The position numbers and the translations under genes are program-made. From contig CM102285.1 in the NCBI GenBank assembly GCA_046563655.1, forward strand, positions 5,146,001 through 5,210,000: DNA of 64,000 bases, in the 5' to 3' direction. Positions 32,701-61,900 of this stretch are shown here, piece after piece. Under the pieces are notes generated by a model, which saw only the letters and a program-made list of their open reading frames with translations, did no database searches and was not told the origin of the DNA. The stretch is from Yuukianura sp. NJ FZ-2021 (lineage: Eukaryota). Position 1 is the first letter of the stretch. Each line of letters starts with the position of its first letter.

Positions 32701-34220
32701 CTCGACTATGTATTAAACCGAACACAAAACAACTGCACACAGCAGAAATGAAAAGCTAAACAACACTAAAGTACACATGTGCTCATGTATAAGAAAAACG
32801 ACACTTCCACAACAATACAACAGCTCGAAATTCCTTTTTCGGCCAAATCCGACACAAAACAACAATTCAACACAAAGCCAAAATCCTCTGACACTACATT
32901 CATTAATTTAATTAGAACCTTGTTTCTTTCTCAAACCAACAAAAATTAACATGAAAACGAAATCAATGTCATGACAGCAACAGAATACGAGCAGCACCAT
33001 CCCCGCCATGTTGTTGTTTTTCAAAATGGCTACTTAGTAAGGCGACAGTGAGATCTTCACGCCATTTTGAATGTTCAAAATGGCCACTAGTCATAACAAA
33101 GGCGACCATCATGACCATAACGTTTTACACAAACGTTGTGGGGTGAAGGGAGGGCAGGGAACAAAAGTCGTGGGGTGAATGGGAGGGGCAAAAATGACTT
33201 TGTTCCAGTTGGCATGGCATGGCTCTAACTCCTCTCAACATATTGTGTTAAATTTCAAATAATTACTAAAGCTTTTGCTTGTCTTTATAACAGTTTGAAC
33301 GTTTCGTTTAAACGGCGAGTTTACATTAAACGTAAAATATATTACCCATGCAGAAAATTGCACAAAAAAGACATCAAATTATATCCGAAAAATGCCAAAT
33401 CAAATCAAGACATCAAATTAATTTGGTTGAATTATCAAAAAGAAAAATGCAGATATAAAATACTTTTACTGAGGTTTGGTTTTGGTTACTATGCTTTTAC
33501 TATTGAAACTGTAAGTTGTCTTATTATAAGCAACGACGTGCAAGTTTAATATTAAATTTTAAAATATTATTTGTATAATTGCATGGATTCTAGTCTTAAT
33601 TTGAAATTGTAAAACTTACATGAGTAGTGTTGTCCCCACTTAGTTTGTATTGATCACTACAAACTAACTAGGGTCCTGCAGCATAAGGGCTGGGTTGGGG
33701 AGGTGGCCTGGTGGGTCCCACGCGGGTGGCCCGTGTGGTGGCTTATGACCACCATACCTATGGCCATAGGGCATAACCTATACCCGTAGGGCATACTAAA
33801 AAAATCTGAAAAAGAAAAACAAATATTGGGAGTTAGGCTTTTTTATTTCCATCTTTTTATTCACAAAGGTTAGTGTTCGTTGACCTCTGTGACCTCCGAA
33901 TGAATGTGGGAGAGCAAGTGAGTGGTGAAGCCACAGAAAAGTCAGTACATAGAGATGGAATGAGTATGCCTAGCCTTATAGTAAGGTAAAAAGAACAGAA
34001 TGAGAACATCAAATGTAAATTAGTGTGAGTAACTTAGAAGTTGAGGAAGGGAAGAAACGAGTGTTTCTACTGCCTGTCACTAAAGTAAAAATAACCTTAT
34101 TTTAAGAAATGAAATGCATGTGAAATGAAACTAAACTTAGCCTAAAATTATGAACCGTCGGTTTACCCGCCAACATGCCGCCACCCCTGACACGATCGTG
34201 TCGGAAAAATACGTTATATA

Positions 34221-35879
34221 CAGTGGCGGCCAAAATTATTGGGACACCCAGTGTAAAAATTTTTAAACAACGATAACTTTTTAACGAAGTGTCATAATTA
34301 ATAACTCGATACGTCATTTTATTCAGAAAATAGTTCTTTCCAATCTCCCAAGTTTTTAGAACTTAAAGTCAAGCGGTTTATTTTATGGAATTTTTTAAAC
34401 TCAAAACGTCAAAATTCTCGCGGTCAAAATTATTGGGACAGCTGGGGTTTTGGAACGAAATCAACAGTTATTGGCATTAGTCTTCCATCGGTAAGTCACC
34501 TAACTTAATTTTTAGTACTTACTAACACTTGTAGTTAATTGTTGATTAGTTTTTCAGAGATGGTTGGCAATATCAAGGAAGTTCCAGGACCGATACGCGA
34601 CCTAATCATTCAAGGTTGGGTTGGTGACGAAAATGGTACAAAATCAGTTCGTCAGCTGTCCGAATTGTACCACGTACCCAAGTCAACAGTACATAGCATC
34701 ATACAAAGGTACCTCAAGACCGGTCATGTCGAAAACAAAGTCGGAAGGGGCCGTAAACCAATTCTTACTGAGAGGGAAGTTCGCCTGATCACCAAGAAAG
34801 TGAAGCTGGACAATCGAGTAAGCGCCGTAGAACTGTCCAAAACACTCAAAAGTGACCTTGACACCGAAGTCAGCCCCCGTACTGTTCAAAGAGTACTTTG
34901 CAATCAGAATTTGAGAGCTTTCAAGCCGTTGCGAAAACCGTTTGTGTCAAAGAAGAATGCAGCCAAGAGATTGAAGTTTGCAAAAGAACACTTTATGAAG
35001 CCGGTATCGTTTTGGGAAAGAATTTTATTGTCGCACGAGTCAAAGGTCAACGTTTTGGGGTCAGATGGACGAAAATATGTCCGAAGAGGTATTGGTGAAG
35101 CCTTAAAACCAAAGAACCTCAATGTGACTGTGAAACACGGAGGAGGCAGTGTCATGGTTTGGGGCTGCATGGCTACAAACGGGGCTGGAACCTTGGAATT
35201 TATTAACGGAATTATGGATAAATTCGGCTCACTTCGTGTCAAGGTCATTTTTGAGTGTTTTGGACAGTTCTACGGCGCTTACTCGATTGTCCAGCTTCAC
35301 TTTCTTGGTGATCAGGCGAACTTCCCTCTCAGTAAGAATTGGTTTACGGCCCCTTCCGACTTTGTTTTCGACATGACCGGTCTTGAGGTACCTTTGTATG
35401 ATGCTATGTACTGTTGACTTGGGTACGTGGTACAATTCGGACAGCTGACGAACTGATTTTGTACCATTTTCGTCACCAACCCAACCTTGAATGATTAGGT
35501 CGCGTATCGGTCCTGGAACTTCCTTGATATTGCCAACCATCTCTGAAAAACTAATCAACAATTAACTACAAGTGTTAGTAAGTACTAAAAATTAAGTTAG
35601 GTGACTTACCGATGGAAGACTAATGCCAATAACTGTTGATTTCGTTCCAAAACCCCAGCTGTCCCAATAATTTTGACCGCGAGAATTTTGACGTTTTGAG
35701 TTTAAAAAATTCCATAAAATAAACCGTTTGACTTCAAGTTCTAAAAACTTGGGAGATTGGAAAGAACTATTTTCTGAATAAAATGACGTATCGAGTTATT
35801 AATTATGACACTTCGTTAAAAAGTTATCGTTGTTTAAAAATTTTTACACTGGGTGTCCCAATAATTTTGGCCGCCACTG
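34221..35879 (+). mobile_element. Tc1/mariner derivative made of two inverted 5' halves, TA TSD
   Basis: Termini CAGTGGCGGCCAAAATTATTGGGACACC are flanked by TA. The transposase ORF from 34539/34560 has HTH, GRGRKP and VKHGGGSVMVWGC motifs and is truncated at about 35230. 35231-35879 is the reverse complement of 34221-34870. Confidence 0.92.
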
Positions 35880-36029
35880 TACATCTGTAAGGATTACCAA
35901 GTCCTCGACCAAAGTCACTCTTACTGCAGGTCGGATGGGTAATTCGGGCATTGCGAAACGTCACCCTCATCCTCCGGCAAAACTAAAAGGAGACCCAATT
36001 TGTGTAACCTCCTACAGCTCAAGCGACTC

Positions 36030-37050
36030 TTACCAAAGCATGAACATAAGAAGCGACCCGATGATACAAAGGAGTTGTAAAAATAACGAGTACCTGCTCA
36101 GTAGAGGAAAAAACACTTGAATGGTTAAGACCTTGACCTTACGGTTTTCCTTTAGATGCTCAGATGTGAGTGTTTGTGAATTGGAGAACGAAGGTAATTG
36201 AGGTTGTGACAAAAACTCCGGTCCGTTCCACCAGAGCTGATTGTCGACGAGATCATTAAGAGGGATCCCTCTTGCTCCGCAATCGGCAGGGTTAAGTGTC
36301 CCAGGTACGAAATGCCAAGATTCGACTTGTGTGAGCTCTTGGATTTGCGAAACCCGATTGGCCACGAATGGGACCCAGCGACGAGAGGAAGATGAGATCC
36401 ACCGCAAAGTGATTTCACTGTCAGTCCAACAATAGATAGACAGTTTGGATCCAAACTAGAAAAAAGAAATTAGTTTCGATAATAATAAAGCACCAGAAAG
36501 TTCGAGCCTCGGTATGCTCTGTGCTTTGACTGGCGCTACTTTAGTCTTGGAAGTAAGAATTCGTAATATTCGTAGATCGTTATTAAATGTTCGGAGGTAG
36601 ACCACTGCACAGTAGGCTCTTTCGGAGGCATTCGAAAATCCATGTAATTCCTTTCGTTGGTAATTTGGTATAATCACACAACGTGGAATGGCAATGTCAC
36701 TAAGACATGACAATGATGAGCCAATGTTTTCCAGAGGGATCTCTAAGTGCATTAGGCACAGAGAGGACCACGGCGATGAGGCGCACTATCGGGTCTATTT
36801 CGCATGATGAGCCAAGGTGGGTCCACCTTTTTAAAAAGTCCTCGGGCAGGTTATCATCCCAACCAATTCCCAAGGTCCAAAGACTCTGAAAGAAAACTTT
36901 TACCGAAACGATGAATGGAGCGAGTAGCCCCAGTGTTTCAAACAACTTTGCAATGTCACTTAAAATGGTACGTTTTGTTATTACCGATGTTTGGTCAAAC
37001 CTAAATCCTGTGAAATGGAGGAGATCAGAATTTGGTGTGCATTGAACATT
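36030..37050 (-). pseudogene. BEL/Pao retrotransposon pol fragment (RT end and RNase H region), frameshifted
   Basis: Motifs LGLLAPFIV, GIGWDDNLP, ELHGFSNASERAYCAVVYLR, SKTKVAPVK, IPRLELSGA, FVANRVSQIQE and NPADCGARG. Confidence 0.92.
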
Positions 37051-37921
37051 TCCATTTCCTTCAGGACGTAATATCCGTCACGCATTTCTTTGAGGGGTTC
37101 TTGGTCGAGCTTGCGGTCCATGGCTCCTGCAAGATGACTGGATCACTTTGACTGGGAGAATGCTCAAATTTATATGAATTTTTTTAAGGTGACTTGAAAG
37201 GGTCATCGCAGTGTTATTTCTATAACTTTGTTTTCAACTTATTGTGTTCAGAGTCTCCGCACAAAATCACCCGCCAACCTCACAAGTAAAAACCATTTGA
37301 AAATTTTTGTATTTCCTTTGTAATTGAGGTTGACTTCGTAATGTTATTCAAGAACCCTTTGGTTTATGATGCACTCAAAATTGATGAAGTTCCTTGTTCA
37401 GTGAAGAAAAACAAAAACAGTCCTTTGACAAAGTCAACAATTTTCAAGGTATTCCAAGAGAAAGCTATAAAACTGCAAATCATCTGATTCAAATGAATTT
37501 CAAGAGTACCAATTCCAAATCATGCGCAATTTTTTTTTACAAATTCCAAACTTGTTTCTGCTCATGTGCACATCAGCTGAGTCAAATGATTCAATAGAGA
37601 CAGTTATGTTTGTATTTTTGGTTGGAGTGACCATTTCATCCAATTGTTGTTTTCACCAAAGTGAAAGGATCCAAAATCGGATCGGAAAGTGCAATGGTCC
37701 AACTTTAAAATGATATTAAATTATTTTACTGAATTAAAAATTAGTCTCAACCCATATCTACCTTATGCTTTGCTGATAGTTTACACTGAAAGTTTTCATT
37801 TTAAAATCGTTTCCCGTGGAAGTTAGGGTGTTAGCATGGGTAAACGTTCAAACATTCAAAGTTAGTGTGTTTATGATGTTTATGTAAACGTCCACGTACA
37901 ATAGCAGTCAAGCCGGCTAGG

Positions 37922-40145: not shown

Positions 40146-40304
40146 AGATTTTAAGGATACTTTATCATTGTACACCTTTCTTTGTCACTGCTTTCTTCAA
40201 ATAAAATTCCCTGAAAATCAATTTTTCTTTATTTATTTGTACAAAAATTCTTATTTAATGCAACATTGGCTTTGATTTGTTTTATTTGCATAAGATGTGG
40301 TTCA

Positions 40305-40628
40305 TGCTACAAGTTCATTTATGAACTTGTAAAATAAAGGCCTTGGAACAATTGAGTTTGTATAGCTTTATTTTACTTACATAGGAGAGGTAGGTTGGGT
40401 TAGGTTAACCCCAAGAGTACCTAGTTAGTAGGCGACCCCAGAGTAAGTTGGATCCGAACCAATCAGAGTCCGAATTTCAACTGATTTGAACAGAACTGAT
40501 CTACGGTATTTAAAGGAAATTTCTTAACCTAGACCTTAATGTATGACCTTAACCTAGCCTAAATAACAAAAACAATATTGGGAAAAACAGAACTATTTTT
40601 GAAGTACCATGGCAGAGAGTTGTTTCCT
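40305..40628 (-). repeat. 3' LTR of the Gypsy element (inner ~83 bp and PPT missing)
   Basis: Aligns to 59651-59975 with roughly 15 differences by eye, then diverges. Confidence 0.9.
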
Positions 40629-40688
40629 TAATACTCGTACAGAATATATTTTTTTTGTTGAATAAAGTGATTATTAACAGGAGTTACA

Positions 40689-41960: not shown

Positions 41961-44743
41961 TTAATTTTGAATTCTTTTCAATTCGTCAAACGGATATTTG
42001 GGTGTTAGACTATTAGGTTTACGAACCTCATTTAGAGTAGTACAGGAGTATTGGTTTTTAAAATTTTTTGGATTATTGTGAATGACCCGAGGTCGATTTC
42101 TGCGTGATTTGGTTCGGCGTAAAACCTGACGGGTGTGCATAACAGGTGCATGAATCTGTAAAGGAATATTTTCAGCTTCCGAATCGCTGCTAGGGATTTT
42201 CACATGTTTATTGCGAACTTTTCTGGTTTTCTGGGATTGAGAAAGGAGTTTGAGTCTTCTAAATATCTGTTGAAAGTAAGCCTTGTTTTTATACAAATAA
42301 ATATTTGAGTGTAAGGACAGCGATAAAAATTGCTAATCCGGACATGCAAATAGTAGCTAACACATTTTGGAATGGGGTTAATACGTATTCTCGTAAAAGA
42401 GTAATAGTTTTTGATTCAATAGGTCGTAAGTTAGAATTTGTATTTTGTAATATATTGTCATTTTGTTTTGTTTAGAAAGTTCTTTTAAGATAGCAGCAAT
42501 TGTCTCTGCGCCACCCACTTCGTCCAATGAATAGACTCCAGGGGCTGAGAAGGACAATTCCGGCATTTTTTTCAATTTTCAATAACCGTTCTGTTAGTCA
42601 AGTGAATAGTCATAGTTCCGTATTCAAAGTAAAACTTAGGTGCTGGACAAGAAGTATGAGTTGGGTCTTTTACAATTTCATGATTGATACCAGTTAAGTA
42701 CCCTTGAATTCGGTCCACGCCTACATAAAATTCAATTGGCCACTCCAGATAGCAACCAGTTTGAGGAAGTAGCATGTAAGTGTCAACTTCTTCACATTTA
42801 TAAACAGAAAGGATGTCTCCATTTGTTTTAGCTCGTAATGCTGGATATTTAGTAACGTGCGTACAAGTACACTAGGTTGTCCAGTAGCTGCTAGTACCCT
42901 AAGAAGTTCTAAATGTGCTTGATGGGCTTTGCACGTATCGCGATGAACAGTTTGAATACCAAAATGGTAAGAACTTGAAACAATTTGATATAAGTAAAGT
43001 AATCGGCTATTGAGTTCTCCCGTAGTTACCAATGTTGGAGTTTCGGGTTTTTCTGGTGCTGGTATTAATAGTTCAGATAACTTAGGTATGAGAGTTTCAC
43101 CGTCTTGTGTTTTAATTTCCTCCGCGGAACCTTCATCTTCTTCAGAAGAATCATCGTCATGAGAACGTTTATAACGTGTGGGATCATTGATTACATTCCG
43201 CGTGAGATTCGTAAAAGAAATAGCAAAAGGATGGTTTCGGATTTTGGACATGACTTTCAGCGTGGAAAAGAGCATCAACCCGATAACGCAACATTCTGAA
43301 ATTTAACAGACGTCATGTAGCCTTAGAGTAGAATCGATGTTCAAAAAATTGGCGTGATGCGTTTTCGGGTTCTAGTCCAAAAGGGACGCCAAAGTTGACC
43401 ATATTTTGATGGAAAGAATCACAATCTTTCATTTATTTCTCGTGCAAAATAGTTTTTAACACTTGGGTTTTAAACACGTGCACATTTTGAAAGTTTCGAT
43501 TGCAAACGTTGCACAACTAAAAAACAGGTTTTACTTTGTGCACAATTTCAAATTTCGGGTTTTTAATTTTTATTTTGCACAATTTCTAACTTTTAAGCGT
43601 ATCCGCTGCACATTTTCCTTGTTTAACGTTTTTAGAATGCACAATTTCTAGATTTTGTGTTATTCGCAGTGCACATTTCAAAAAGTTTACGTTCGAACAT
43701 TGCACAACTTTCGTACCTTTTCTGCAGTTGTGTTGCACAAGATCAAACTTTCTGGTTGTCACATTGCACAGTTTCGAACCTTTTGTTTTTAAATTGCATA
43801 TTTTCATAAGTTATAATAATGAGAATCAACCGATTGTAAACCGGATATACGTAAGTAACGTAAGCTCTGTTCAAGTCCGGCATAAAATAATTATCGGTGT
43901 CAGACAACGATAAGTATTGATTTTGGTAAGTGAGATCCAATTCTAAATGAGGCCATTTTGTTTTTCATTGATTTCGAAGAAAGAGCCAAAAGTTTAAAGT
44001 ATGTAGCAGTTTTAGATTTTTGAGAAGTAAGCAACTTTCAGCTTTTTGAAGAATTTATGTTAATGAAACAGTTTCCTTTTAAAACACCTTGGCTGCACCT
44101 GTTGACTGTATAACTGTGTTGTAGATAGTTGACGTTAATGGACTGACAAAAGAAAGGTGACTGACTAAAGAAAGTCTGATCCATGAACGGCCAGACAGAC
44201 AGACAGGCAGGGCCAAACCATAAAGTAGCTTACGCTATTTAGAAATAACAGGTGTTTCACAATTTCGAGCTTTTCGAGTTTTGATGCTGCACAAGGCCGA
44301 AAGAATTGTGCAACATTTTGCACATTTGTGAAAAAAACAGGCGATTTAAAACGTTTTATAACGTTATTAATTGGGCCGGAGAAAATACAAACAAACAAAT
44401 GGCGCTGGGCCGGATTTTCTACAGAAACCCGAAACCATCCTTTAAAGAATTATTACTCTCGGTGAAAATAATACCTTGAGCAGATGTACCGAAAATCAAT
44501 CCACATTTTTTAACAGGAATGACTTTAGTAATGGCAATTTCTAATGTTGGACATGACAGACGATCTTCAGTAAATAAACATGTAGCAGAATCACCGTCTT
44601 TCATCCTACATATCTTCACGTCCTTTGGTGTCCAACAAAGAATTCCATTTTCTGTATCACATGTACCTGTCTAATATTTACATTGTCCAACGGTTTTGGC
44701 GGTAGTAATTATGGTATCATCTGTATTTGATATCGAAAGTGTC
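41961..44743 (-). pseudogene. env: Envelope-like fusion glycoprotein (probable class III, gB/chuvirus-G-like), degraded and interrupted
   Basis: Cys-rich GQCKY*TGTCDTENGILCW, a furin-like RYKR site, TC..HQAHLELL...GQPSVLVRTLLN and, after a frameshift, GDILSVYKCEEV...GCYLEWPI...C. The N-terminus is missing beyond the BEL LTR. Confidence 0.65.
43229..44440. mobile_element. Non-autonomous TIR element (1212 bp) inserted at AAA^TTT without TSD (Spy-like)
   Basis: TIR GGATGGTTTCGG...CCGAAACCATCC with flanks AAAA and TTTA. Excision rejoins env in frame (ESNNSL-N-FAISF). Internal degenerate TGCACA-containing repeats lie at about 43460-43800. Confidence 0.85.
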
Positions 44744-45185
44744 TGTGAGCGCTCAGCGCGACTCACACTCCTCCTCGTCTCGGATTGCATACCAAATAAG
44801 GATAGAGATGAGAGTGCTTGTTGCACATGCACAAGAAGAGCATAAAAGGGAGTGCAACAGAGGAATAGGGAGCTCTGTATGGGGTTGAGGCGAGACTAGA
44901 GAGGTTAGCATGTAACAGTACTAGGGCCCTAGGATAGGTCGTAGGTTAAGTGCTTGTAGGTTGGACTAAGGGATCCCAATAAAGAGTGTCTACCTGAACT
45001 GGTGGTGTGTCGAGTGGGAGTTTACCTTATTGTCCCTTTTGGGGCTGAAACCATAACTGGGAGTGGCAGGTCATACTTGAGACGGGATCAGCGTTCCGTC
45101 CGCTATACAGTCGACATAGGCTCCACTGAGTTCTCGGTGTGCTTCTGGTCGGTGTGACGACTCATCCGCACCGGCAGAGGTCACA
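44744..45185 (+). mobile_element. BEL/Pao-type 5' LTR
   Basis: TGTGA...TCACA termini, a TATA-like CATAAAAG and an AATAAA at about 44978. It is followed 3 nt later by a tRNA-Tyr-type PBS and interrupts env at 44743. Confidence 0.8.
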
Positions 45186-45188
45186 TGA

Positions 45189-45206
45189 TGGTCCTTCGAA
45201 CCGGAT
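45189..45206 (+). promoter_or_regulatory. Primer-binding site (tRNA-Tyr type)
   Basis: TGGTCCTTCGAACCGGAT matches 17/18 of the complement of the tRNA-Tyr 3' end (TGGTCCTTCGAGCCGGAT), a PBS commonly seen in BEL/Pao elements. Confidence 0.85.
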
Positions 45207-45455
45207 AAAAATTTTTTTTTCTCTCTCTCCGTCCTCTTACTACAACAATCACAACGGTGAACAGGTAAAACCCAAATAAACACATCTTTGAGCCAGAGAC
45301 CAGAGAACAGGTAAAAAATAAATCATTCGCAATCTATTTCTTTTACTATCATACATCATTACACATCACTAATTCAGGCAACCTTTTTAACCTGCAACAA
45401 AGAATTGAAATTTTTTGCAGTATTCCTGTTTCAAACTAAACCAGATTTTGATTTC

Positions 45456-48400
45456 TCAAATAATATATCTATCCTTATTCAATACTATATTCTCTTGTGC
45501 ATCGAAACAATACCTAAAATCCCAACTACAATATCTTCTGCACTCTATGACGTCTTCCTTCGAATCCTTTATATTACCGCACATACATCTAAAACACTTA
45601 TGAGCTTCCCTAGTTTCGCCTAACGTGCTCAAAATATCCTCCCATGATTCCCAACAGGAAATGCAACGAACGCATTTGGTGCGGAAATGTCGCGAAAGTC
45701 CTACCCTATCCTTAAAAAATTCGTCGCAAAATCCACAATGAAATTTACATCCAATGATACGGGTTCCCGAAATTTTTCCTCTTAAAACATGCTCCTCTTT
45801 TTCCTTGTCCTGAAAATCATAAAAAAAAATACAAGATGTTACAATCTTCAATTCCTATATTTCAATTCCTATTGGAAATATTAATTACCGTGTCACAATA
45901 TTTCCCGCATACACAGTATTTCTCAGCCGTACAATTTATCAACCGATGATAGTCGTTTAGATCCACGCCGGTCGCTCGCCCGCATACACATTTTTGATAC
46001 AATAAGTTCCAGGGTCTATGCCTTTGCACATGACGATCTATGTCAGTTATGTCAAAGAAATACTTGATTCGTTTACGGCCCACTAAGACTCCGTCATCAT
46101 TCTTTTGTTTGCAAACTGAACAGCATAGCTTTAAAACACCGGGAATGGGTTTTACCAATGTACCCTTCTGTAGGCAACCTGTGAGTAACAACCCCATAGG
46201 CATCACAAACAAAACTAAGACTAAAAAGAAAGCAATTTTAATTTACTTAGAAGTATGTGCGGAACTGTATAAACATCTTTAGGACGGCCATTTTGCGTAC
46301 TGAAAGGAGGCTGAGCAAGGAAAGCGCCTTGAGCATAGCTGTCATAATATAATTTCAAAGAAACTGGAGAATTAACCTCGTCAGATCCAAGTAAGTACGA
46401 GGAAATTCCGATATGATAGTTCCGGCCATCTTGGGGATTAAAACGCGACGCACCAATTTTTATAAGAGGAAAGTTCCCAATGTCACACTAATAATAAGAT
46501 AGAAACACAACATTAGATTGACTATATTAAAAATTAGACAACTACTTGCTAGCATTTTCCATACGCCTAACCTAGTCTCAGTTACCTGTGACTGAATATG
46601 AGCATCCGTTGTATACAAAGATAAGCTATCCGTTATTACGGACATATCCGAGTACTCTGCTAGCATTGAGCTATTACCATCTCCTAGAGCAGCGGCATTA
46701 GCAGTAGATTCTTCTTCATCATCACTGCTAATCACATCAGGGGGTTTACAACTCATTATCCAATACAGGCATTTTGCAATCGCAATTGGGAACGAGAAAC
46801 CCTCCATAGTTAAAGTAGGCCCCGCGCGGAAATCAGGATCAGAATTATTCTTTGTCTCCTTCTTATACCAATAATATAGTATCCTCTTGGTCAAAACGAA
46901 TACTCGAGAACCTTCAGGAGTAACGGTATTATCCAGATGAGTGGTACTAATCCAAGTATGGGGTAACTTAGGGTCACAAAAGTGACACCCCGAAGTTCCA
47001 CGGATAGACCTTTTCCCGGGTTTACCTTTTCGTTTTTCCAGCAGTAACTAATTGAAACATTAATTACAAAATTAATACATAAAATTGAGATTCCGAGCTA
47101 TCAGAATTTTCGAAAATCATAAGTGGCACCTGTAATATTATCTTTAATCTCCTGGTTTCTTGAACCTCGGGTTTCTCAGTATGAGTAAACTTCCAATGAA
47201 GAAACACCAACAGGTTCAGGAGAAAGATCTTATCCTCCCTTAATTCAGTAAGTAAGCGTGTGATCGGCAGGAACGGCACGATCTAAGAAAATTAGAATTA
47301 ATTACAGGGAGCATATTTAGTCCTCTTACAATAAAATAAGTAAAACTAGTACACACGCTAACCTTCTGGTAGTTAAAAATCACCTTCAACTCAAACAAAT
47401 GAACCAATAGGCCATGTAATTTGGTATTATTGGAAACCAGTTCATAAAACTCCGAAACAGCTCTGCCACATAATAAAGGTTTCGTTTTCTGCAAAGTCTC
47501 AGCGTTTTTATATTTCCGGAAAAATTCGTCCAGATAATTTTTGAAGCCATCCGAATTTCGTTGCATAAACGCAGGCAAATGAGACACCATTGCATGAGTT
47601 ACCATCGAGGAAGCACCCGCCCGTACTGGAGCACCTATAAAGGGAAATCTTTAACAATCAAAACAGGACAAGACAGGGAAAGAAACAAGGGAGGGCGGTG
47701 CTCAAGGTTGAGCATAGGTCTTCAGGTAGGAGTCAGAAATTGATGACTCTTAAACCGGCTGTCTGTTGAAAAATCGAACCCTGAGGACAGTTAGTCGAAT
47801 ATCGTTTCTTAAAATCAAAAGCGGTTCAAACAACTGCACGAAGTGTTATTAGGGGCATAAGCGGTGGAGTCGAATATCGCTTGTTGAAAATGTAAATTAT
47901 AAAAATTTCTTGCAAAGGCAAATTCGAATCCTGCTAAATACCGCCTACGTATTAACAATTTAAGCCGGAATTTCCACCCTTGAACTAGGCTCAATTTGAC
48001 AACGTAATTATAACTAGGGTTTAGCTCCCATAAGAACGTGTGTCGGAACCTGCTCCCGTAAGAACGTGTCGGAACCTGCTCCCGTAAGAACGTGTGGCGG
48101 AACCTGCTCCCGTAAGAACGTGTGGCGGAACCTACTCCCGTAAGAACGTGTGGCGGAACCTACTCTCATAAGAACGTGTGTCGGAACCTACTCTCATAAG
48201 AACGTGTGTCGGAACCTACTCTCATAAGAATATGCGTCGTAACTTACTATCAAGCTCAGGGTCCGAACTTAATTTCTTAAATCAGCCGCGCAGAACCTGC
48301 ATCTAGACAGTACAAGGTAGGGCGGTGCTTGAGGGATTAGTATCGGACTTTTGGAGGAAAATTGATTCAACTTAAACAAACCTGCTACAAAAACTGTAAA

Positions 48401-49207
48401 GGAACTCAAAAAACCGTTTTCACGGGATCAGAATGAAAACTAACTCCACACCTTGTTAAATACTCTTACATAGAAAGAGTTTAAGCCACACTTTTTACAA
48501 TCCAACAAGCCAAAATTTAATAACATACATAACAATCTTGTAAAGAAGAAATGACCAGATAAAGACTTCATTCTTAATCTCAATAGTATTCTCCAGTAGT
48601 TTATAGACATACGTCCCGGGGAGCAGTAAAAACGAAATAAGTTTAACTACTTACCAACGGGGACTTCAGGAACCGCTTGGTTCTCACTCGCACTCGTTTG
48701 AGAGCAGCGTTCTACATCACTTATAGGGGAGTGACTAACGGTAATTGACGTCTTTTTCTGAAATATCTTCCTCTGAATTTTAGCTTTGGTGGTAACTTTC
48801 TTCTTTCTTGCAGTTTTGACCTCTAAAAAGACAAAGGAAAAACAGTAAAAACTGAAAAATTTTTAGCTTTTCAGAAATATCAAATCCAAACTTACTAAAA
48901 TTTTTGCGCAATTGCGAAGATTTCCGCGGTGATTTTCCTCCAATTAACTTTGACATTCCACGAGGCTTTCCCATCCCAGAAGGGGCAGCAGGTCCCGCAA
49001 TGACCCCTGAACTGGTAGAAGGAGTAGCCTCAGCAACTATTATAAAAAATACTGTAATATAACGCCTATGTTATACGATCCGATAAAAAGAAACAAAGAA
49101 AAGAAAACTGGAAATACAAAACATTGGATAATTCACAAGTCAGTTATGAGTAGGAAGCGAAATTACATACCTTCTGGCTTTCCCTTTCCAACTTTCGTCC
49201 GAGCCAT
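45456..49207 (-). CDS. Unknown 705-aa protein with histone H3-tail-like N-terminal motifs and Cys/His zinc-finger-like C-terminus; 9 exons (49207-49171, 49036-48896, 48822-48655, 47634-47363, 47282-47130, 47047-46586, 46487-46247, 46178-45889, 45809-45456)
   Basis: AACCATGG start context. Eight GT-AG introns (134, 73, 1020, 80, 82, 98, 68, 79 nt) are all phase-compatible, giving 2118 nt with no internal stop. The protein begins MARTK and contains GGKSPRK and KTARK. Confidence 0.78.
48025..48246. repeat. Tandem minisatellite, 8 copies of a ~28-bp unit (CTCCCGTAAGAACGTGTGGCGGAACCTR), in intron 3 of the H3-mimic gene
   Basis: Head-to-tail units of 26-28 bp with no spacers. Confidence 0.95.
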
Positions 49208-52200
49208 GGTTACAGATTTTTTTTTTTCTACAATTAACCAAGGTGAAAATCCACAAGTATAAATTCACTTATAATCACCCCTCCACGTCCAACAGGCCTC
49301 AACTATTAGGTCTACGAAGGAATACTTAAATTCGCAAGAATTTTGCAAACTGACCCAATCAACACACGACCCGTTGAAAAAAGTATTGGCAAAAAGGCAG
49401 GAAAAGCTAAAAATAAACAAGTCTCGAAAAATGCAACTTTGGCACACAACTAATTTACATAGCTAGTAGGAAGACTACTCAGGGTGAAAAGAATACTATT
49501 AAGGAGCGCAAGAAGAAACGTTTCACAAAAAGTTTTAATTTTAGAATTAGAAAAAAAATCCAAGAAAGAAAGAAAAAAAAAACAACAAAGCTGCCAAATT
49601 TTGCCGAAAGTTAGCGCACAAACGTTTTACATGCCAATATCCAGAAGACCAGACCAAAACATTATTCACGAAAATCCATTGTCTCAGTTTTCACACAACA
49701 CAGCATTACACCGGTTAAAAAGGCGTTGTTACTTCTAGCTTACAAACGGACTTGGGAAGTCTTCCATAATGCCAGTACACCGAACCCCCGGATTCCTCCA
49801 TGTTACATCCGTAACTAGCATGCAACGAAGTATTAACACAGATAATTATCAACCAAATCCGCTGGATGCTAAACTTAAGCTAGGTAAATGGACTTCAGCA
49901 AAAGTCTGAAGCCTTTCTCCAACTGACTTAACAAACGGAAACGGTTTTTCCACAGTAGACATACAGCACTGTAAAGGAGTGGACTGGGAGTGAAACAAAA
50001 TCCATAGCACCTTGGTTTTGAAACAACAATTTTAACACAACCGGACTTATAAGCATTTTATTTATCTTGTCTTCAAATAATTATTTTGTTTATTTTTCAC
50101 CATATAACCACAAGTCTATTGTATAAACAGCGATTTACAAGTTCAAGAGCGGCTTCTAGACCAAGCAGAAAAAACAGGTACACAAACGTAATTGAACTCT
50201 TTTAACAAGTACTCATTTTACAGTACAACTTAAATGACACACGCGCTGAAACTCAATATTTAGCGGTTAAATGGTAGGACTGCCCTTCCTCGTGCCCTCC
50301 TTGGACCATCATCTACCGGCTGAGGAATTTGGGAAGAAAGAGGTTCCGGGATGGCCACAATTTTTTGAAGAATTGTGAATATAAGGTCATCCAGAACACC
50401 CCAAGGGGTGGCATATCCAGAGTCAAGGATACGATCTTCAATAAAGCGCAATATGCACTCGGCAAGGTATTCCTGCACCTCTTCCTCTTGTTGTACATCT
50501 ATCCAATTTAATAATGATTTATAGTAAATAATGTCAAAAGAAGTATATCCAGTGGAAAAGGGATGAGTCAATTCTTGTCTGGTTCCAGTAAAATTTTGTT
50601 TTAAAGTTAAAAATAGTTTCTCGGGAGAGTCTAAATCTTCTTTTAAATTGTCAAGAGTAGTGTAATATGTATCACTTTCGATATCTGGTAAGTCCTAAGC
50701 AAAAATTTTCCGCATTCTTCCTACGTGTGCTGTGGAAACGGTATTTGTTTTTAAACATTTAATTTTATAGAGGAGATCATTAAGTTTTTCTAAAATCTCA
50801 AAATTCCCTGAATAAAATTTTTTTAGATTGACCTTTCTCAGTGCGGCGAGGAAATTTGAGTTTAATTTTGTCTTCAATTTTAAAGTCGACTTCCTTACGT
50901 CGTTGATCCTCACGAATTTTATATCTTTCTTGTTCTTTTTCTAAAGTTTCTTTTACAAGTTTACGCAGATGAAAAATATCGCAATTAGAACGTAAAGTCT
51001 CAGAAGAAGGTAATTGATAAGGAAATGATGGCTCACGGTTAAATACAATACGATAGGGACTCTGATGAGTAGTTTCATGTTTAGAAGTATTGTAAGCAAA
51101 TTGAATTTGTTCTAAATTTAGGTCCCAGTCATTGTGCATTGTGCTGACATAATGTGATAGCATACGATTCATTGTTAAATGTAACCGTTCAGCAAGTCCG
51201 TTGCCCCTAGAATTATAAGGCGTGATAAATAAATGTTTAGATTTGTATAACCTGCAGTAAGTTTTCAATAATTCACTTATGTACGGTCCTCCGTTGTCAC
51301 TTAATAAGTAACGAACAGAACCCATACGTGAAAAAACGCTTTCGTGTAAAAATTTAGCAATAGTTTCAGCTGTTTGGTCAGGTATCGCTTTAAGCCCATT
51401 TAGAAAAATGACAAATAATATTGACAATATACTTGTTTCCTGATTGGCTAATTGGGTATGGCCCACATACATCAGTTGAAACCAGTTCAAAAATTGTTTC
51501 TGGAACTGGAAGTGGTTTAAGAAGCCCGTATCTTTTTTCATGTGATACTTTATTAATTAAACACGAGTTGCAAGCATGAATAAAATTTGACAGATCAGCA
51601 GCAATGGATGACCAAAAATAACGCAAAGAAAGTTTATCAAAGGAGGGTGAAGAGCCCAAGTGTGCCGAAATAGTTTGTTCGTGTACTAATTGTAGTAATT
51701 CTTTTCTGAGTACTCGAGGGACTACCAGACGTGGGTATGGGTATTTGTAATTGTATAGAATGCCATTTTTGAGTTGAAATTTAGGTTTTGATACAGATTG
51801 AGACATTTTTTCTATAATTTGGATACAATCGGAATCAGCTAACTGTAATTGGTATAAGCGATCTTCAGAAATTAAAAAACTTGGTGCCTCTATATCTGTT
51901 TCATCGAATTTGTCAGGAAGGGGAAGACGTGAAAGACAGTCTGCTAATTTATTAAACGTTCCTTTACGGTAAACAATTTTATAGTCATATTGTTGCAAAA
52001 TTAATGCATATCTGGCTAATCGGGAAGAAGTCTCATTTTTAGCAAAATTTAGTCCAGTAATGGGTTGATGATCAGTAAAAATTGTAAAGAATTTAGAGTC
52101 CAAATAAAGGTGAAATACCTGTAATGCATAAATTATGCTTAAGTACTCACGATCTGTAGTAGAATATTTAATTTGAGTTTTATTTAAAGTACGGGAAGAA

Positions 52201-53926
52201 AATGCAACAGGTCTTTCAACCCCATGTTCATCGGGTTGCAGTAAGGACGCTCCTAACCCGTATCCGCTAGAATCAGTAACGACATGAATAGGTTTATTAG
52301 GGTCGTAATGAGCTAACACTGGGGCTGTGAGTAATGCCTTTTTCAAAAGTTGGAAAGATTTTTCTTGCTGTTCTCCCCGATGAAATTTCGTATCTTGATG
52401 TAATAAAATCGTAAACGGTTTGGCAAGTTCCGAATAACGATATATGAAACGACGAAAGAAACATACGGCTCCGAGAAACTGTTGGATTTCCTTTATGCTC
52501 GATGGAGTTTTAATTTCCGAAATTGCTTTAGTGTTTTCGGGGTCTACTTCAACTCCATTTTTAGATACAATGTAGCCTAAAATGCGAATAATTTTTCCTC
52601 GTAAAAATTGGCTTTTCTTAATATTTATTTTTAATCCATATTTTCTAAATCGTATAAATGCTAGTTCCAAATCCTTGACATGTTCCTGAATTAATTCCTT
52701 AAATTGCTAAAAATAATGTCGTCCAGATAATTAATTAAATTAGTCTAAATGTAATTCATCAGAATAATTGAAAGTGACCTTGAATCGGCGGCAGGCGCTC
52801 CACAGAGGCCAAAAGGAAGTTTAACAAATTCAAATAACCCTGATTGGCTAATGAATGCAGTTAACGGTATACTCTCTTCGTCCATTGAGATTGCCCAATA
52901 GCCTTTTTGTGCGTCTAAGGTTGATATTTTATGAGCCCTAGGTGCGATCCAGTCCAATATAGATTGATTGTTTGGCAATGGATACGCGTCTTTAACTGTA
53001 ACTTTATTAACTGGACGGTAGTCTATACAAAATCGTGGCTCTTTTTCCTGTTCAGACTTATGTCCGTCTCTAACTATTACTACTCCCGCTCCCCAAGGAG
53101 AACATGATGGTCTTATTACTCCTAATTTTAAAAGTTAATGAATTTTGTCACGTTCAAATTTTTCAAGATCTGGAGCTTTCCTATACGGGGCTCTTTTAAC
53201 TGGGGAAGCATTTGGAATTATCGTAATTTTATGTTTATAACAATATATTTTACCAATTTCGCCAGGTTTGGCAAACACATCTTGATATTTTCGAATTATT
53301 GCTTCAAGCAGTGCTTTTTCTTCGGACGAAGCTGTTGAAGCAATTCTTGCCAGAATAGCCTGAACATGAGTTTCGTCATTTATTAATGGATTACTGTCGG
53401 CTGGTGTACTAGAATTTTCAGAACGACATTCAGCAATATTCAGTACTTTTTCTTCAATTGGAAGATTTTCTAAAGTACTGATATTAGCAATTTTAGTATT
53501 AGCCGAAATTGTAATCGGGAAATCATGAATATTCATAAGTGGAAGAAACAAAAATTCATCCGAGTAAATTGATCGTAACAAAATGGGTGGCATTAAGATA
53601 CCTAACTCAATTAATTCATCACTAATTTCTAAATAATTCAAGTCATTAAGGTGGCCATTAAGCTTTACTTTAACTAATTTTACTAACCTAGCCGGCAATA
53701 TTAAATTATTAACATTATGTACAGAAGGATCCTGGTTGTGTGTCTGGTGTTGTGTAGACGAGAGCTCTGATGCTAACGCGTTATGTAACTTAATGTTATC
53801 TAATTCATTACTTGTGTTCCTAAAACTAAAATCGTTATTATTTTTCACATTTTTTATATCTTGGTTTATTTTTAACGCTAACACAGTGTGTTCTTTCATT
53901 GTCAAAGTAATGGGTTCATCATTCTT

Positions 53927-54187
53927 AAGTTTATTTTGTTCTGACAGCTTGTGTCCTTCCATTTCTGCCTGAATGGGTTCATTCTTCCTCTGAATTATTA
54001 TTTTTTGATTCATAAGTTTATTTTTTTCTTACAGCTTGTGTCCTTCCATTTCTGCCTGAATGGGTTCATTTTTCCGCTGAATTATTATTTCTTGATTAAT
54101 AAGTTTATTTTGTTCTGACAGCTTGTGCCCTTCCATTTCTGCCTGAATGGGTTCATTCTTCCTCTGAATTATTAAATTTTGATTTCT
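53927..54187 (-). repeat. Three in-frame 87-bp (29-aa) tandem repeats in the protease-RT linker
   Basis: NQxxIIQRKNEPIQAEMEGHKLSEQNKL occurs three times, and the middle copy has a TAA stop at 54031-54029. Confidence 0.9.
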
Positions 54188-54481: not shown

Positions 54482-56852
54482 AGTTTTCATTTTTCGGATG
54501 TACTCCAGTTGTGGAATCTATTTTTATTGAGAACAATATCCAAGCTTTTGAACAATTGACTTTGTCCTTTTTCAGGGAAAATTTTAAATTAGAAAAATGT
54601 TTTAGTAAGATCTATAACTTCAGTGAGAAAAATTTTAGGTCGTAGTTGTTGACGGGAAAAATTTTCGTTTCTGTAATTTCTTTGCCATGGGGACGAGCAG
54701 GGGTTTCCAAATTGGGTTGACCTTCATTCCGCTGTCTCGATTTTAATTTCCCGATTCCGAATTGATCAGAATAGATTCGTAGAATTTCCTGTGGAAATTT
54801 TTTGGCCTCTTCAAAATGAGACTTGCTGAGTCGAATAAGATGTTTTGATTTTGAAAGTCCTTCAAATGTTGGACAAATGCTGAATTTTCGTTGTGTTTTT
54901 CAACATCTTTCTTGTGTTCTGCTACCCGAGTTTGTAAATTACGTCCTGTTTCTCCGATGTACTTTCTTTTACAATTGCATTGGATTTCATAAACTCCTGA
55001 TGTCATTGATTTTTCTTTTTCTTTGTGGTTACAAAGCATGTTTTTGATTTTGGCCCCAGGAATATATCCAAAACTGCAATCAAATTTTTTGTGAAGGAGT
55101 TTTGAAATTTTAGAAGTCAATGACCCGACATACGGAAGTATGAATCTTTTGTCATCTTGTGAGCTTGGGTTAACTTGATTCATTTTCAGTTTTTCTTTCA
55201 TTTTCTTGAATCTGGAGAGGATAAGTGTTCGTGGGTATCCATTGTGGACAAGTTGGTTGAAAATGTGATTTAGTTCATCTTCGATATAAGGACCATCACA
55301 AATTTTGAGGGCTCGGAAAGTTAATGAGTCTATCACCGACATTTTATGGGAAATGATGGAATGATTGGAAATTTAGATATCTTCCGGAATGAGTCGGTTT
55401 TCGGAAAATCCTTTTCGAAATATTTGCAGCTTCGTTGTATTCAAGTTTTAAATCCAGAAAATTGATTTTGCGATCAACATCTGATTCCAAAGTTAATTTT
55501 AAAGATGGATGGAAGTTGTTGCGGATCGAAAGAATTTCTTCAATTTTGTCTGATTTTATGCAGGCGATGATGTCATCAACGTAACGTTTGAAAAAAGCAA
55601 TGTCTTGGTGTGGGAGAATCAGTGATTCTTCGATGTACTGCATGCAGAATTCGGCAATTAATGGGGAAATTGGGCTTCCCATAGGAGTACCATGCACTTG
55701 CTTGTACAATTTTCCTTTGTATTGGAAAAAATTACATTCTGCTGCTAGTTCGAGTAGAGAAAAAATGTCGTTCAAATCTAGAGAAGTTTCCGATTTCCAT
55801 CTTGTGTCCGCGATCAGTCTTTGTTTCATGTATTGAAGTGTAAGATCCACTGGAACATTTGTAAAAAGTGAGACGACATCGAATGAAACCAATCGGTATC
55901 CACAAGGTACTTTAAAAGTACTTATAATTTCAGAAAATTGGAAGGAGTTCTTTAAATACGTTGGAAATATCGTTGTTATTCCTTTCAGTATTTTGTTGAG
56001 ATAAATCGCGAGTTCGTAAGAGACTGATTTTCTGAAATCGACGATTGGTCTGAGTGGTACACCTTCTTTGTGGATTTTGGCAGACCGTAGAAAATTGGAA
56101 TTCTTAAATCCGAATTGGTTAAAATTGTGTATAATGATTTGTTTATCCTCTTCCTTTTGAGCATATTCTTGCATTTCTCTTTGATTGCTTTCTCATAAAA
56201 TTTGCTCGGGTCGGATGGTATGACTCTGTAGCTTGTATCTTGTAACAATTTTTCAATTTTTATATTGTAGTCTTCCTGGTTTAAAATCACAGTAATATTA
56301 CCCTTGTCCGCGGGTAGAATTGCGATTGACTTGTCCGATTTCAGATTTTTCAGAATTGGAGGTATCCAGTTGTATTTTGATTGATTATCAGATTGTGTGG
56401 GTTGATGGCGATGCACAATGCGTGAAATAGAACTTCTAACAAAATACGAATTTGTGTTGTTTTCGGCATTTCCTCGGGGGAATTGTAATTCAGTGTTAAT
56501 TATTGTATCAAAAACTTTCTTGTTGAAATTGTTTTCTGGGATGGCAATATTTAGTCCCAAATTTAAAAGTTTTTCTTCTTCGGAGGTAAGTTTTCGATGG
56601 GAAAAATTCTTTGTGCTTGGAATCGTGTGGAATTGATCCAGATCACTTATGTTGATTTCAAATTGGTGTTCAGTGTTTTTGCCGAGTAAATTCGCAAATT
56701 TTTTGCGATGCCTTTCTTTGGTTTTGGTATTTTCACTGTTTACTGCAGCATCAACTTTTTCGAAAATGAAATCCAGACATCGTGTTTCTAAATTCGTTAC
56801 GAGTTGGATTTGTATTGGTTCAAGTTGTAATTCCAAAGTTCTCCGAAGTTTC
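54482..56852 (-). mobile_element. 5'-truncated Penelope-like element (RT plus GIY-YIG endonuclease) with 13-bp TSD
   Basis: Motifs PADKGN, PLRPIV, SFDVVSLFTNVP, GTPMGSPISP, RYVDD and GVYEIQC..YIGETGR. TAACGGAAACTTT occurs at 54469-54481 and 56853-56865. Confidence 0.93.
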
Positions 56853-59648: not shown

Positions 59649-59650
59649 AA

Positions 59651-60058
59651 TGTTACAAGTTCATTTATGAACTTGTAAAATAAAGGCCTTGGAACAATTG
59701 AGTTTGTATAGCTTTATTTTACTTACATATGAGAGGTAGGTTGGGTTAGGTTAAACTCAACGAGTACCTAGTTAGTAGGCGACCCCGGAGTAAGTTGGAT
59801 CCGAACCAAACAGAGTCCGAATTTCAACTGATTTGAACAGAACTGATCTACGGTATTTAAAGGGAATTTCTTAACCTAGACCTTATGGTATGACTTTAAC
59901 CTAGCCTAAATAACAAAAACAAGATCTGGAAAAACAGAACTGTTTTTGAAGTACCATGGCAGAGAGTTGTTTCCTAAAGTACAAGGTCATCTAAGGGACT
60001 CAAGACGAAAACAAAATAACAATGCCTCTTACTTGTTGGGTTTGTGGGATGTGTAACA
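59651..60058 (-). repeat. 5' LTR of the Gypsy element, 408 bp
   Basis: TGTTACA...TGTAACA inverted termini, with the PBS on one side and the TSD on the other. Confidence 0.92.
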
Positions 60059-60517: not shown

Positions 60518-61165
60518 TTAAATAAATGCAATACTACATTTTAAATGGTTTAATGTATCCACAAATGTTTGTGCGACAAATTTCACATTTCGAAATTGAG
60601 AGGACGCAGTCGATGAGAGGACGCAGTAGCAAAGATGGCCGCAAGCCAACACAAGGTACTGCTCTCCTGCTGGGCTCAGGCAAATGACGCACTCGAGCTC
60701 CAGCCCATTCTTATTGACCTGAGGCTCGGTTTCAACGGCTTGATCATTGGGAGCGTCGACTTCGTCAAAACCTTGAGGCTTGTATCCTACCGGTAGCAAA
60801 ATAAATGGCCATTGAGGGTTGTAATTTGCATGGTCAACGATTGGATCGTCTTGCCTCTCCCATTCTCCCACGCCGAGCCCGCAATAGAAGCACACAACGT
60901 GGTCATCATCTCCGTAGTAACAGAATCCAGCTTTTGCCAAGTGTTCTGGAGGTGGGTATGGTTTTGGAAAAGCTACAAATGTTGGAATTCGCTTATCCAA
61001 AGACGCAAACTTTGGAGACTTTTGTCCCTTACCATTCACAACGCCATAAGTGTTGTACAGTAACTTTGTTGTAATTTTCAAGCGTTCGGTGATCAACTGA
61101 ACCAGTTCTGTGATTACATCACCAATAGGATCCATTTTCAAGTCAAAACTAACTCTTCTCTGCAA
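60518..61165 (-). pseudogene. iap: Intronless viral-type inhibitor of apoptosis (single BIR plus RING), degraded
   Basis: RIPTF...LAKAGFCY.G..D.VVCFYC...W...DDPIVDH BIR, whose last Cys reads Trp. The RING CVIC...LACGHLCYC is broken by a frameshift. Confidence 0.85.
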
Positions 61166-61169
61166 AATT

Positions 61170-61900
61170 ATCGGTCTAATATACCTTCCTCGGATTCGAT
61201 TTCGTAAGTAGTTGGATTCGTTTTAAGTACGGAAACGACCTTCTGCTTTTGATCTTCGAAATTTGGAGCATACCCTTTTGTAAATGTTGTCTTTGTTATC
61301 TTTAGGTTTACAATGTCCCCAACCTTCAAGTCGTTTTTTGTCGCTTAACAATTTTATGACCGTACAGCCTCTGCCAAACCTCATTCGCATTTGATGCGTT
61401 TACAGAACTTGGAGTTCTTCCTACTGTTCTGTGATAGGAATTTTGATATGCAACTTCAAAGTCGCGAAGTTTATGGATGGATCGTTTTGTTTTGTTTTGT
61501 GTCATATACCTCGTAATTTATTGTTGTATTGTCCGTAAATCGTAAATCGTTCAACATAACTAACCTTAACTGTACTAAAGGTGGAAAACTGATTATGTTA
61601 TGTTCTAAACAATACTTTTTCATTGCGCTGCCCACACATTCTTTACCGTCATCACTCTAAATCTTTGCTGGTTTTACGCTTGCTCGTACTAGTACACTGT
61701 CTAACGCATCCGGAACTTGAGTCATAGTCTATTTTTTACTGGCTCCAGCCATGCCATTTTACTAAAAAAAAAGGCAACCACAACCAAAATGTAGTTTTTT
61801 CCAAAATCTGATTTTGCGTATTTCCTGTTATCAATCAAATCTACTCCAAATTGTTCATTCATTGCCGGTACATAAACATAACGTTTCGAAAGTTTCGCTT
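61170..61900 (-). pseudogene. Polinton/Maverick retroviral-like integrase, degraded
   Basis: Manual translation gives QFGVDLIDNRKYAK...NYILVVVAFFFSKMAWLEPVK, KPAKI*SDDGKE and LKVGDIVNLKITKTTFTKGYAPN, which are typical Polinton integrase blocks. Confidence 0.8.

Follow-up and report, generated by a model that had tools for sequence, protein, structure and literature searches.

A plus-strand LTR stump in the env gene of a Gypsy element of Yuukianura sp. and the nine-exon gene beside it

The 64-kb window analysed here (assembly GCA_046563655.1, contig CM102285.1, positions 5,146,001 to 5,210,000 of the forward strand; coordinates below are those of the window) comes from Yuukianura sp. NJ FZ-2021. 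It is eukaryotic DNA rich in repeats, and it contains a 19.7-kb Ty3/Gypsy retrotransposon on the minus strand. The env gene of this element is interrupted by a plus-strand long terminal repeat (LTR) with an adjoining tRNA-Tyr-type primer-binding site (PBS), and the data support the view that the two mark where a distinct LTR element of plus orientation, of which they form the 5' end, integrated into the Gypsy env. The LTR, the PBS and the neighbouring anatomy are real and more than chance. Beyond the PBS lies an intron-rich gene on the minus strand. That it is cargo of the plus-strand element is neither demonstrated nor refuted, and we lean slightly toward a gene residing in the Gypsy element over a gene carried by the plus-strand element. 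What is new is that the right border of the block is refined to position 49146, with the first exon of the gene on the Gypsy side of the border.

The plus-strand LTR and its primer-binding site

The LTR starts with TGTGAGCGC and ends with GAGGTCACA, its termini forming a perfect inverted repeat of five nucleotides (nt). Its guanine-cytosine (GC) content is 51%, against 36-42% in the surroundings, and it holds a TATA-like motif (CATAAAAGG) near 44841 and an AATAAA motif at 44978. The PBS follows 3 nt further on, and it matches 16 of the first 17 letters of the 3'-end probe for human tRNA-Tyr, whose sequence is given in 10.64898/2026.01.26.701835; the comparison is with human tRNA only. The window itself contains no tRNA genes and no Rfam families. 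On the minus strand, the env frame is open up to 44743 and continues into the LTR (open reading frame, ORF, 44671-44895). The LTR therefore interrupts env, since the frame is open up to the base that precedes it, and the integration junction coincides exactly with the LTR terminus. The first-pass annotation, a reading of the sequence without database searches, had proposed that a plus-strand LTR and a tRNA-Tyr PBS break up the Gypsy env, and this description is borne out.

The LTR is a repeated sequence, as judged from the assembled contigs of four read runs (X1-X4), of which X3 represents a second organism. As the depths are sums for each contig, they do not reflect copy number, and counts of distinct contigs were used instead. 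At position 45115, another letter than that of the window is found in eight distinct contigs of X1 and ten of X2. A contig of 384 nt spans 44765-45147 with 22 differences (94% alike to the LTR), and five of the 15 joints listed are indel variants within 44744-45185.

The partners that a complete element would have are missing, as had also been noted at first reading. Blastn (word size 7, E up to 1) found no second copy of the LTR in the 64-kb window. Pfam scans of the window ORFs, which covered 63 of the 95 ORFs of at least 90 amino acids (aa) window-wide and 22 ORFs of the 40.7-58.2 kb stretch, found no gag or pol domain on the plus strand adjoining the LTR. Second LTR, polypurine tract and target-site duplication of a complete element are thus lacking; with the right end gone, no duplication is readable.

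An assignment of the LTR to the BEL/Pao type, made in the first-pass annotation, is without support. The sole Pao-type domain in the window is a Peptidase_A17 fragment at 36033-37077 (E 3.6e-22 and 9.4e-16), which lies about 8 kb from the LTR, on the minus strand and outside the Gypsy element. Nothing else in the 64-kb window resembles the LTR by blastn, the BEL/Pao fragment included. No Pao-type protease, reverse transcriptase (RT) or integrase is linked to the LTR, as the coding sequence of the plus-strand element is gone.

The host gene has also lost sequence. In its distal part, env matches the Pfam family Monjiviricetes_fusion at profile positions 361-428 of 653 (E 1.1e-5, a score under the curated cut-off), and only about 669 nt of env are left upstream of profile position 361. 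The missing N-terminus implies at least one deletion after the integration, which agrees with the earlier proposal that the right side of the insertion was deleted together with the env N-terminus. Among relatives, none with the N-terminus was found. A search with the distal env (piece B) returned only the metagenome protein P0001, a bearer of PF24664 that is 53% identical to it, partial and without the N-terminus, while a search with env piece A gave no relative and a metagenome scan for env relatives returned only the 3-kb contig of P0001 itself. Nor did the 12 short minus-strand ORFs of 49140-50201 match any Pfam family or show an env-like domain.

In several respects, the stump is like truncated nested insertions of LTR retrotransposons, with which it shares a TG...CA terminus exactly at the integration junction within another element, a PBS 3 nt after the LTR, and the loss of the partner LTR and of the coding region. 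It differs from them in that the deletion here would come to within 250 nt of where an intact multi-exon gene has its stop, and would have removed part of the env of the host element as well.

A nine-exon gene on the opposite strand

The gene model has a single open frame from ATG to stop. All eight introns have GT-AG borders; they are 68-134 nt long, except for the third, which measures 1020 nt. The ATG of exon 1 stands in the context ACCATGG, and the exon ends in a near-consensus donor (AAG|GTATGT) in the correct phase for exon 2. The stop codon lies 250 nt from the end of the PBS, on the opposite strand to the LTR. It had been claimed that an H3-mimic gene ends about 250 bp downstream of the LTR and PBS on the opposite strand; the position and the strand stand, while a sequence search with exon 2 detected no similarity to H3.

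Several features speak for a coding gene. The gene strand contains ten ORFs of at least 70 aa with a total of 1100 aa, which none of 300 dinucleotide shuffles reached, and the GC content is 42% in the exons versus 36% in the introns. The possibility that the model represents a non-working, decaying fragment of a host or transposon gene, placed next to the LTR by nested insertions only, strikes us as very unlikely. Such a fragment could well be without homologues, without a Pfam domain above cut-off and without a confident fold, as is the case here, and at all three exon positions where all contigs of sample S1 differ from the window, the difference changes the amino acid. However, 705 codons are open over nine exons with eight GT-AG introns, inside a Gypsy element whose own genes bear stops, frameshifts and insertions, and both the ORF excess and the higher GC content of the exons argue against decay. 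Polyadenylation signals are a separate matter: on the gene strand, there is no AATAAA or ATTAAA between the stop codon and 44300, only an AGTAAA at 45347, and two other genes that were checked have a signal within 135 nt. The absence of AATAAA and ATTAAA behind the gene fits a 3' end that has been clipped.

The searches for relatives were negative throughout. No paralogues were found within the window by tblastn, no relatives of exon 6 in a word search against longer proteins, and none in the ESM Atlas, the PDB or viral contigs. HMMER against 1.84 billion representatives gave no credible relative; its single match, at 9.6e-5, is to a repetitive protein and was judged spurious. Exon 9 shows only a weak C2H2-like match, with Pfam E values of 0.014-0.028 (below cut-off) and Atlas scores of 0.87-0.89 (under 0.9). 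The AlphaFold2 model of exon 6 alone has a mean predicted local distance difference test (pLDDT) score of 35.5 and is unusable as a fold. As for the signs of a DNA transposon, candidate terminal inverted repeats flanking the gene are low-complexity or chance pairs only, and no Helitron-like ends were seen around it by eye.

The gene is a member of a small family, since diverged partial copies are present in the S1 contigs. These copies are 85-89% alike to the gene and keep introns 4, 5, 7 and 8. One of them (X1 record 5) has 96 differences and a single gap over 655 nt, across introns 4 and 5, and another (X1 record 3) has 93 differences and 20 gaps over 826 nt.

The tail of histone H3 contains the motifs ARTK and GGKAPRK. 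The N-terminus of the gene model reads MARTK, followed by GGKSPRK and KTARK (exons 1-3, 49207-48655), which we take to recall these motifs. The region is generally rich in lysine and arginine, and chance could explain the motifs in such a basic region; when all PDB chains were searched by phmmer with the exon-2 ORF, no histone appeared among the matches at E up to 10. The ARTK motif falls in exon 1, whose ownership is doubtful. Judged from these motifs, H3 mimicry is a lead only. A literature search on H3 mimicry by retrotransposons, judged by its listings, returned no matching case, which does not prove that there is none in print.

Borders of the block and ownership of the gene

On the left side, the LTR and the gene are physically joined. 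A contig of 516 nt (X2 record 11) runs unbroken over 45156-45671 with one difference and thereby links the LTR end, the PBS and the 3' end of the gene, although the X2 run may derive from the source sample of the window, so that this contig is not independent support. The 250 nt between the PBS and the stop codon could belong to the leader of the plus-strand element, to the 3' flank of the gene, or to both, and if the gene is not cargo, the deletion junction likely lies among them.

On the right side, the evidence comes from the second organism. A contig of 1086 nt (X3 record 17) matches 49146-50052 with 17 differences and five gaps and then continues with 182 unlike letters; the side on which the unmatched part lies was judged from how the minus-strand records 1 and 24 align. 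With about 98%, its likeness to the window is at the level of the X3 contigs over the Gypsy env, pol and gag (records 16-19 and 23). The second organism thus shares exon 1 and 0.85 kb upstream of it. Over 45512-48831, the cover of X3 is near nil except for an intronic repeat and carries no evidential weight. Among the 15 of 60 joints that were listed, none crosses the whole block from 44743 to at least 49146.

A possible account of the locus, which we favour tentatively and with less than even confidence, is that the gene resides in the Gypsy element and that the stump was fused to it by a deletion. A plus-strand LTR retrotransposon primed by tRNA-Tyr would have integrated in the env frame of an older, already decaying minus-strand Gypsy. 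Subsequently, a deletion would have taken about the first hundred codons or more of the Gypsy env and, from the inserted element, gag, pol and the 3' LTR, of which element the 5' LTR, the PBS and at most 250 nt of leader would be left. The same deletion would have joined this remnant to the 3' flank of the nine-exon, 705-codon orphan gene, which on this account already lay in that Gypsy copy beforehand, on the Gypsy strand in the interval between pol and env. The gene may have been acquired as DNA by an ancestral copy or have been carried by the Gypsy lineage, and the retention of its introns would be due to copying in the form of DNA or of unspliced genomic RNA, not to a status as antisense cargo. 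The copy in the second organism would differ at 49146 by deletion or recombination. Residence in Gypsy fits with the finding that diverged copies of the Gypsy RT and of the gene are similarly distant from the window copies; the RT copy (X4 record 27) has 78 differences and 16 gaps over 744 nt. Exon 1, with its ACCATGG context, strong donor and matching phase, lies in the stretch that the second organism shares at the level of the Gypsy genes, and this too is in favour of the account, as is the lack of AATAAA and ATTAAA behind the gene. The exact junction at the LTR terminus, the missing partners of the LTR and the absent env N-terminus are likewise consistent with it.

Several observations weigh against this account. 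A sense gene with eight introns should lose them by way of the Gypsy RNA, whereas introns 4, 5, 7 and 8 are still present in the diverged copies. X3 record 17 departs from the window 24 nt into intron 1, and exon 2 is not adjacent in the second organism; if this contig represents the native Gypsy, exons 2-9 are foreign to that element. The X3 contigs also depart at the edge of a Penelope-like element (record 23) and at the joint of a 1212-nt insertion in env, and because X3 departs at these two other later insertions, a clean Gypsy copy is the simpler explanation for the departure at 49146. In addition, none of the contigs seen connects the gene with a Gypsy that lacks the plus-strand LTR.

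The opposite assignment, which is a form of the one made in the first-pass annotation, appears somewhat unlikely. In it, the gene was antisense cargo in the interior of the plus-strand element, beside the PBS, and a deletion after integration ended at 49146. The element would then comprise 44744-49145, with the LTR, the PBS, exons 9 to 2 and 109 nt of intron 1, while the ATG exon would be Gypsy sequence that splices in frame by chance, or a Gypsy leader exon. A single integration followed by a single deletion would account for the breakpoint as well as for the lost env N-terminus, and the second organism need not have undergone any event; its contig leaves the window at 49146, and X3 contigs also do so at the two other later insertions. 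The antisense orientation would also explain how introns survived reverse transcription, in line with diverged copies whose introns are nearly equal in length (one gap in 655 nt in X1 record 5). Contigs with variants are about four times more numerous over the LTR (8-10) than over the gene (2-3), which fits two LTRs per element plus solo LTRs. However, the start of the gene would have to be accidental: no further than 61 nt from a random breakpoint, there would happen to be ACCATGG, a donor close to consensus and the right phase. X3 record 17 also puts exon 1 on the Gypsy side of the breakpoint, along with the 0.85 kb upstream of it. A full-length member of the LTR family is not seen among the contig fragments, and within the element the gene has no canonical poly(A) signal. 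With an antisense gene of 3.9 kb lying 250 nt from the PBS, there is no room for gag, which would make the element non-autonomous. The published antisense extra ORFs sit between pol and the 3' LTR (PMC7264820).

We regard it as quite unlikely that the gene is an accessory gene of the Gypsy lineage at large, with its own promoter between pol and env. The window copy would then be a recombinant of two subfamilies that crossed over at 49146, and the LTR stump would stem from an unrelated insertion that came later and was shortened by a deletion. Consistent with such a history, exon 1 and its upstream region are common to the window and to the contig of the second organism, the diverged copies of the gene and of the Gypsy RT are both at about 85-89%, and the Gypsy element is complex, with a further long frame after env (42332-40689). 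It would require, however, that eight sense introns survive repeated reverse transcription; no contig links a paralogue of the gene to a Gypsy, and the database searches yielded no relative of the gene.

Surrounding features and known systems

The coordinates of the stump, the gene and the parts of the Gypsy element are collected in Table 1.

Table 1. Features of the plus-strand stump, the nine-exon gene and the surrounding Gypsy element, in window coordinates
Feature	Position	Strand	Details
5' LTR of plus-strand LTR retrotransposon	44744-45185	+	442 bp, TGTGA...TCACA; superfamily unassigned
Primer-binding site, tRNA-Tyr type	45189-45205	+	TGGTCCTTCGAACCGGA, after a TGA spacer
Gap between PBS and gene stop	45206-45455		250 nt; GAACAGGTAAAA twice on the plus strand (D11)
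Gene model	45456-49207	-	9 exons, 705 codons; stop codon 45456-45458
Gene exons 1-5	49207-49171, 49036-48896, 48822-48655, 47634-47363, 47282-47130	-	
Gene exons 6-9	47047-46586, 46487-46247, 46178-45889, 45809-45456	-	
Short high-copy repeat in intron 3	47794-47946		loose ends cluster in four of four runs; 14-17 contigs over 47929
28-bp tandem array in intron 3	48025-48248		8 copies; Tandem Repeats Finder score 308
Pol stop to contig departure	49146-50259	-	contains exon 1 and gene upstream region; no long ORF
Gypsy 3' LTR	40304-40631	-	direct repeats D1 and D4, 94-96% identity to 59650-59978
Gypsy env, distal part	42572-43228	-	one frameshift
Insertion in env	43229-44440		1212 nt; 16-nt terminal inverted repeats, GGATGGTTTCGGRTTT at both ends, inverted
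Gypsy env, proximal surviving part	44441-44743	-	ORFs 44419-44670 and 44671-44895; ends at 44743
Gypsy pol	50260-53134	-	RVT_1, RT_RNaseH, Integrase_H2C2, rve (Pfam); decayed
Penelope-like element	54615-56851	-	RVT_1 and GIY-YIG endonuclease (Pfam); inserted within Gypsy protease
Gypsy gag	58234-57000	-	first gene in minus-strand order
Gypsy 5' LTR	59650-59978	-	PBS-like TGGTGCCGAAAGCGACC 2 nt internal to the LTR

The outer element has the parts of an env-bearing Ty3/Gypsy, with an LTR pair, gag, the order protease, RT, RNase H and integrase, and env after pol. Some Ty3/Gypsy elements bear an env glycoprotein acquired from a negative-strand RNA virus, and the outer element is similar to these in its gag, protease, RT, RNase H and integrase and in its weak Monjiviricetes_fusion match; this comparison covers the outer element only, and the match is below the Pfam cut-off, although P0001 with its PF24664 domain lends support to the env assignment. 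The protease ORF is divided into 57306-56797 and 54517-54029, with the Penelope-like element between the two parts. No close relatives of the Gypsy pol were found in metagenome or viral contigs. The env frame is preserved across the 1212-nt insertion, and one contig each of X1, X2 and X3 joins 43228 to 44441, with shorter sides of 30, 30 and 24 letters. As these contigs join across it, other copies or alleles without the 1212-nt element exist. The inserted element is packed with high-copy short repeats, seen as loose ends at 44192, 44231 and 44318.

Additional observations concern the Gypsy element itself. An 87-bp tandem repeat (53921-54184; three copies, 91% matches) lies in the coding frame just after the protease and encodes a 29-residue peptide. 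On the minus strand, a long frame fills the stretch between the end of env and the 3' LTR (42332-40689; 123 + 275 + 147 aa with two in-frame stops); its end is rich in serine and aspartic acid, it has no Pfam match, and it could represent either an env tail of great length or an additional Gypsy ORF. Contigs of X1 and X2 join 60058 to 40628 (region 59979-60058), and the Gypsy LTR seems to be about 80 nt longer in other copies than in the window copy at 40304-40631.

The window outside the Gypsy element holds a 649-nt inverted duplication (34216-35884, 99%), both arms of which contain the N-terminal DNA-binding part of a Tc1/mariner transposase. A possibly intact PIF/Harbinger-type transposon is located at 8314-12138, with 598-nt terminal inverted repeats (98%) and an open frame of 834 aa with a DDE_Tnp_4 domain. 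On either side of the repeat-rich stretch lies a host gene of ordinary appearance: an AAA+ ATPase gene on the plus strand (19877-22712) and a BIR-domain gene on the minus strand (60521-61222).

Antisense extra ORFs are described for the LTR elements Grande, RIRE2, Retand, PvRetro13 and Boty brtn, where they are located between pol and the 3' LTR and are found in most copies of a family (PMC7264820). These plant and fungal ORFs resemble the present case in that a gene without relatives and of unassigned function lies antisense to an LTR element, and in that an own promoter is presumed. Unlike them, the gene described here would lie between the PBS and gag, contains eight introns and occurs in an animal-type genome. 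A position between pol and the 3' LTR does not apply to it, as its 3' end is 250 nt from the PBS, on the gag side. A literature search on antisense intron-bearing ORFs in LTR elements, judged by its listings, gave no matching case, which does not prove that none is in print.

Gene transduction and capture by LTR retrotransposons and retroviruses are mentioned in PMC7264820. What they have in common with the present locus is that a coding sequence of cellular type, present once or in a few copies, is found between the borders of an LTR element. Captured genes are usually sense-oriented, fragmentary and intronless, whereas the gene here is complete and intron-rich.

It is conceivable, though we think it unlikely, that an animal family of LTR retrotransposons mobilises a complete, intron-rich gene of cellular type as antisense cargo by the PBS, of which the window copy would be a truncated member, and that the gene was kept intact because it is useful to the element. 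As part of the same unlikely proposal, the basic H3-tail-like N-terminus and the C2H2-like C-terminus might act, for example, by interfering with chromatin silencing. If the gene is a mere neighbour, brought to the stump by nested insertion and deletion, this would be an ordinary locus with a lineage-restricted orphan gene, notable solely for 705 open codons inside a decayed element. If it belongs to either retroelement, the locus would represent a rare animal LTR element with an intron-bearing accessory gene, and would then bear on how retroelements gain and keep host-like genes and encode chromatin-directed factors.

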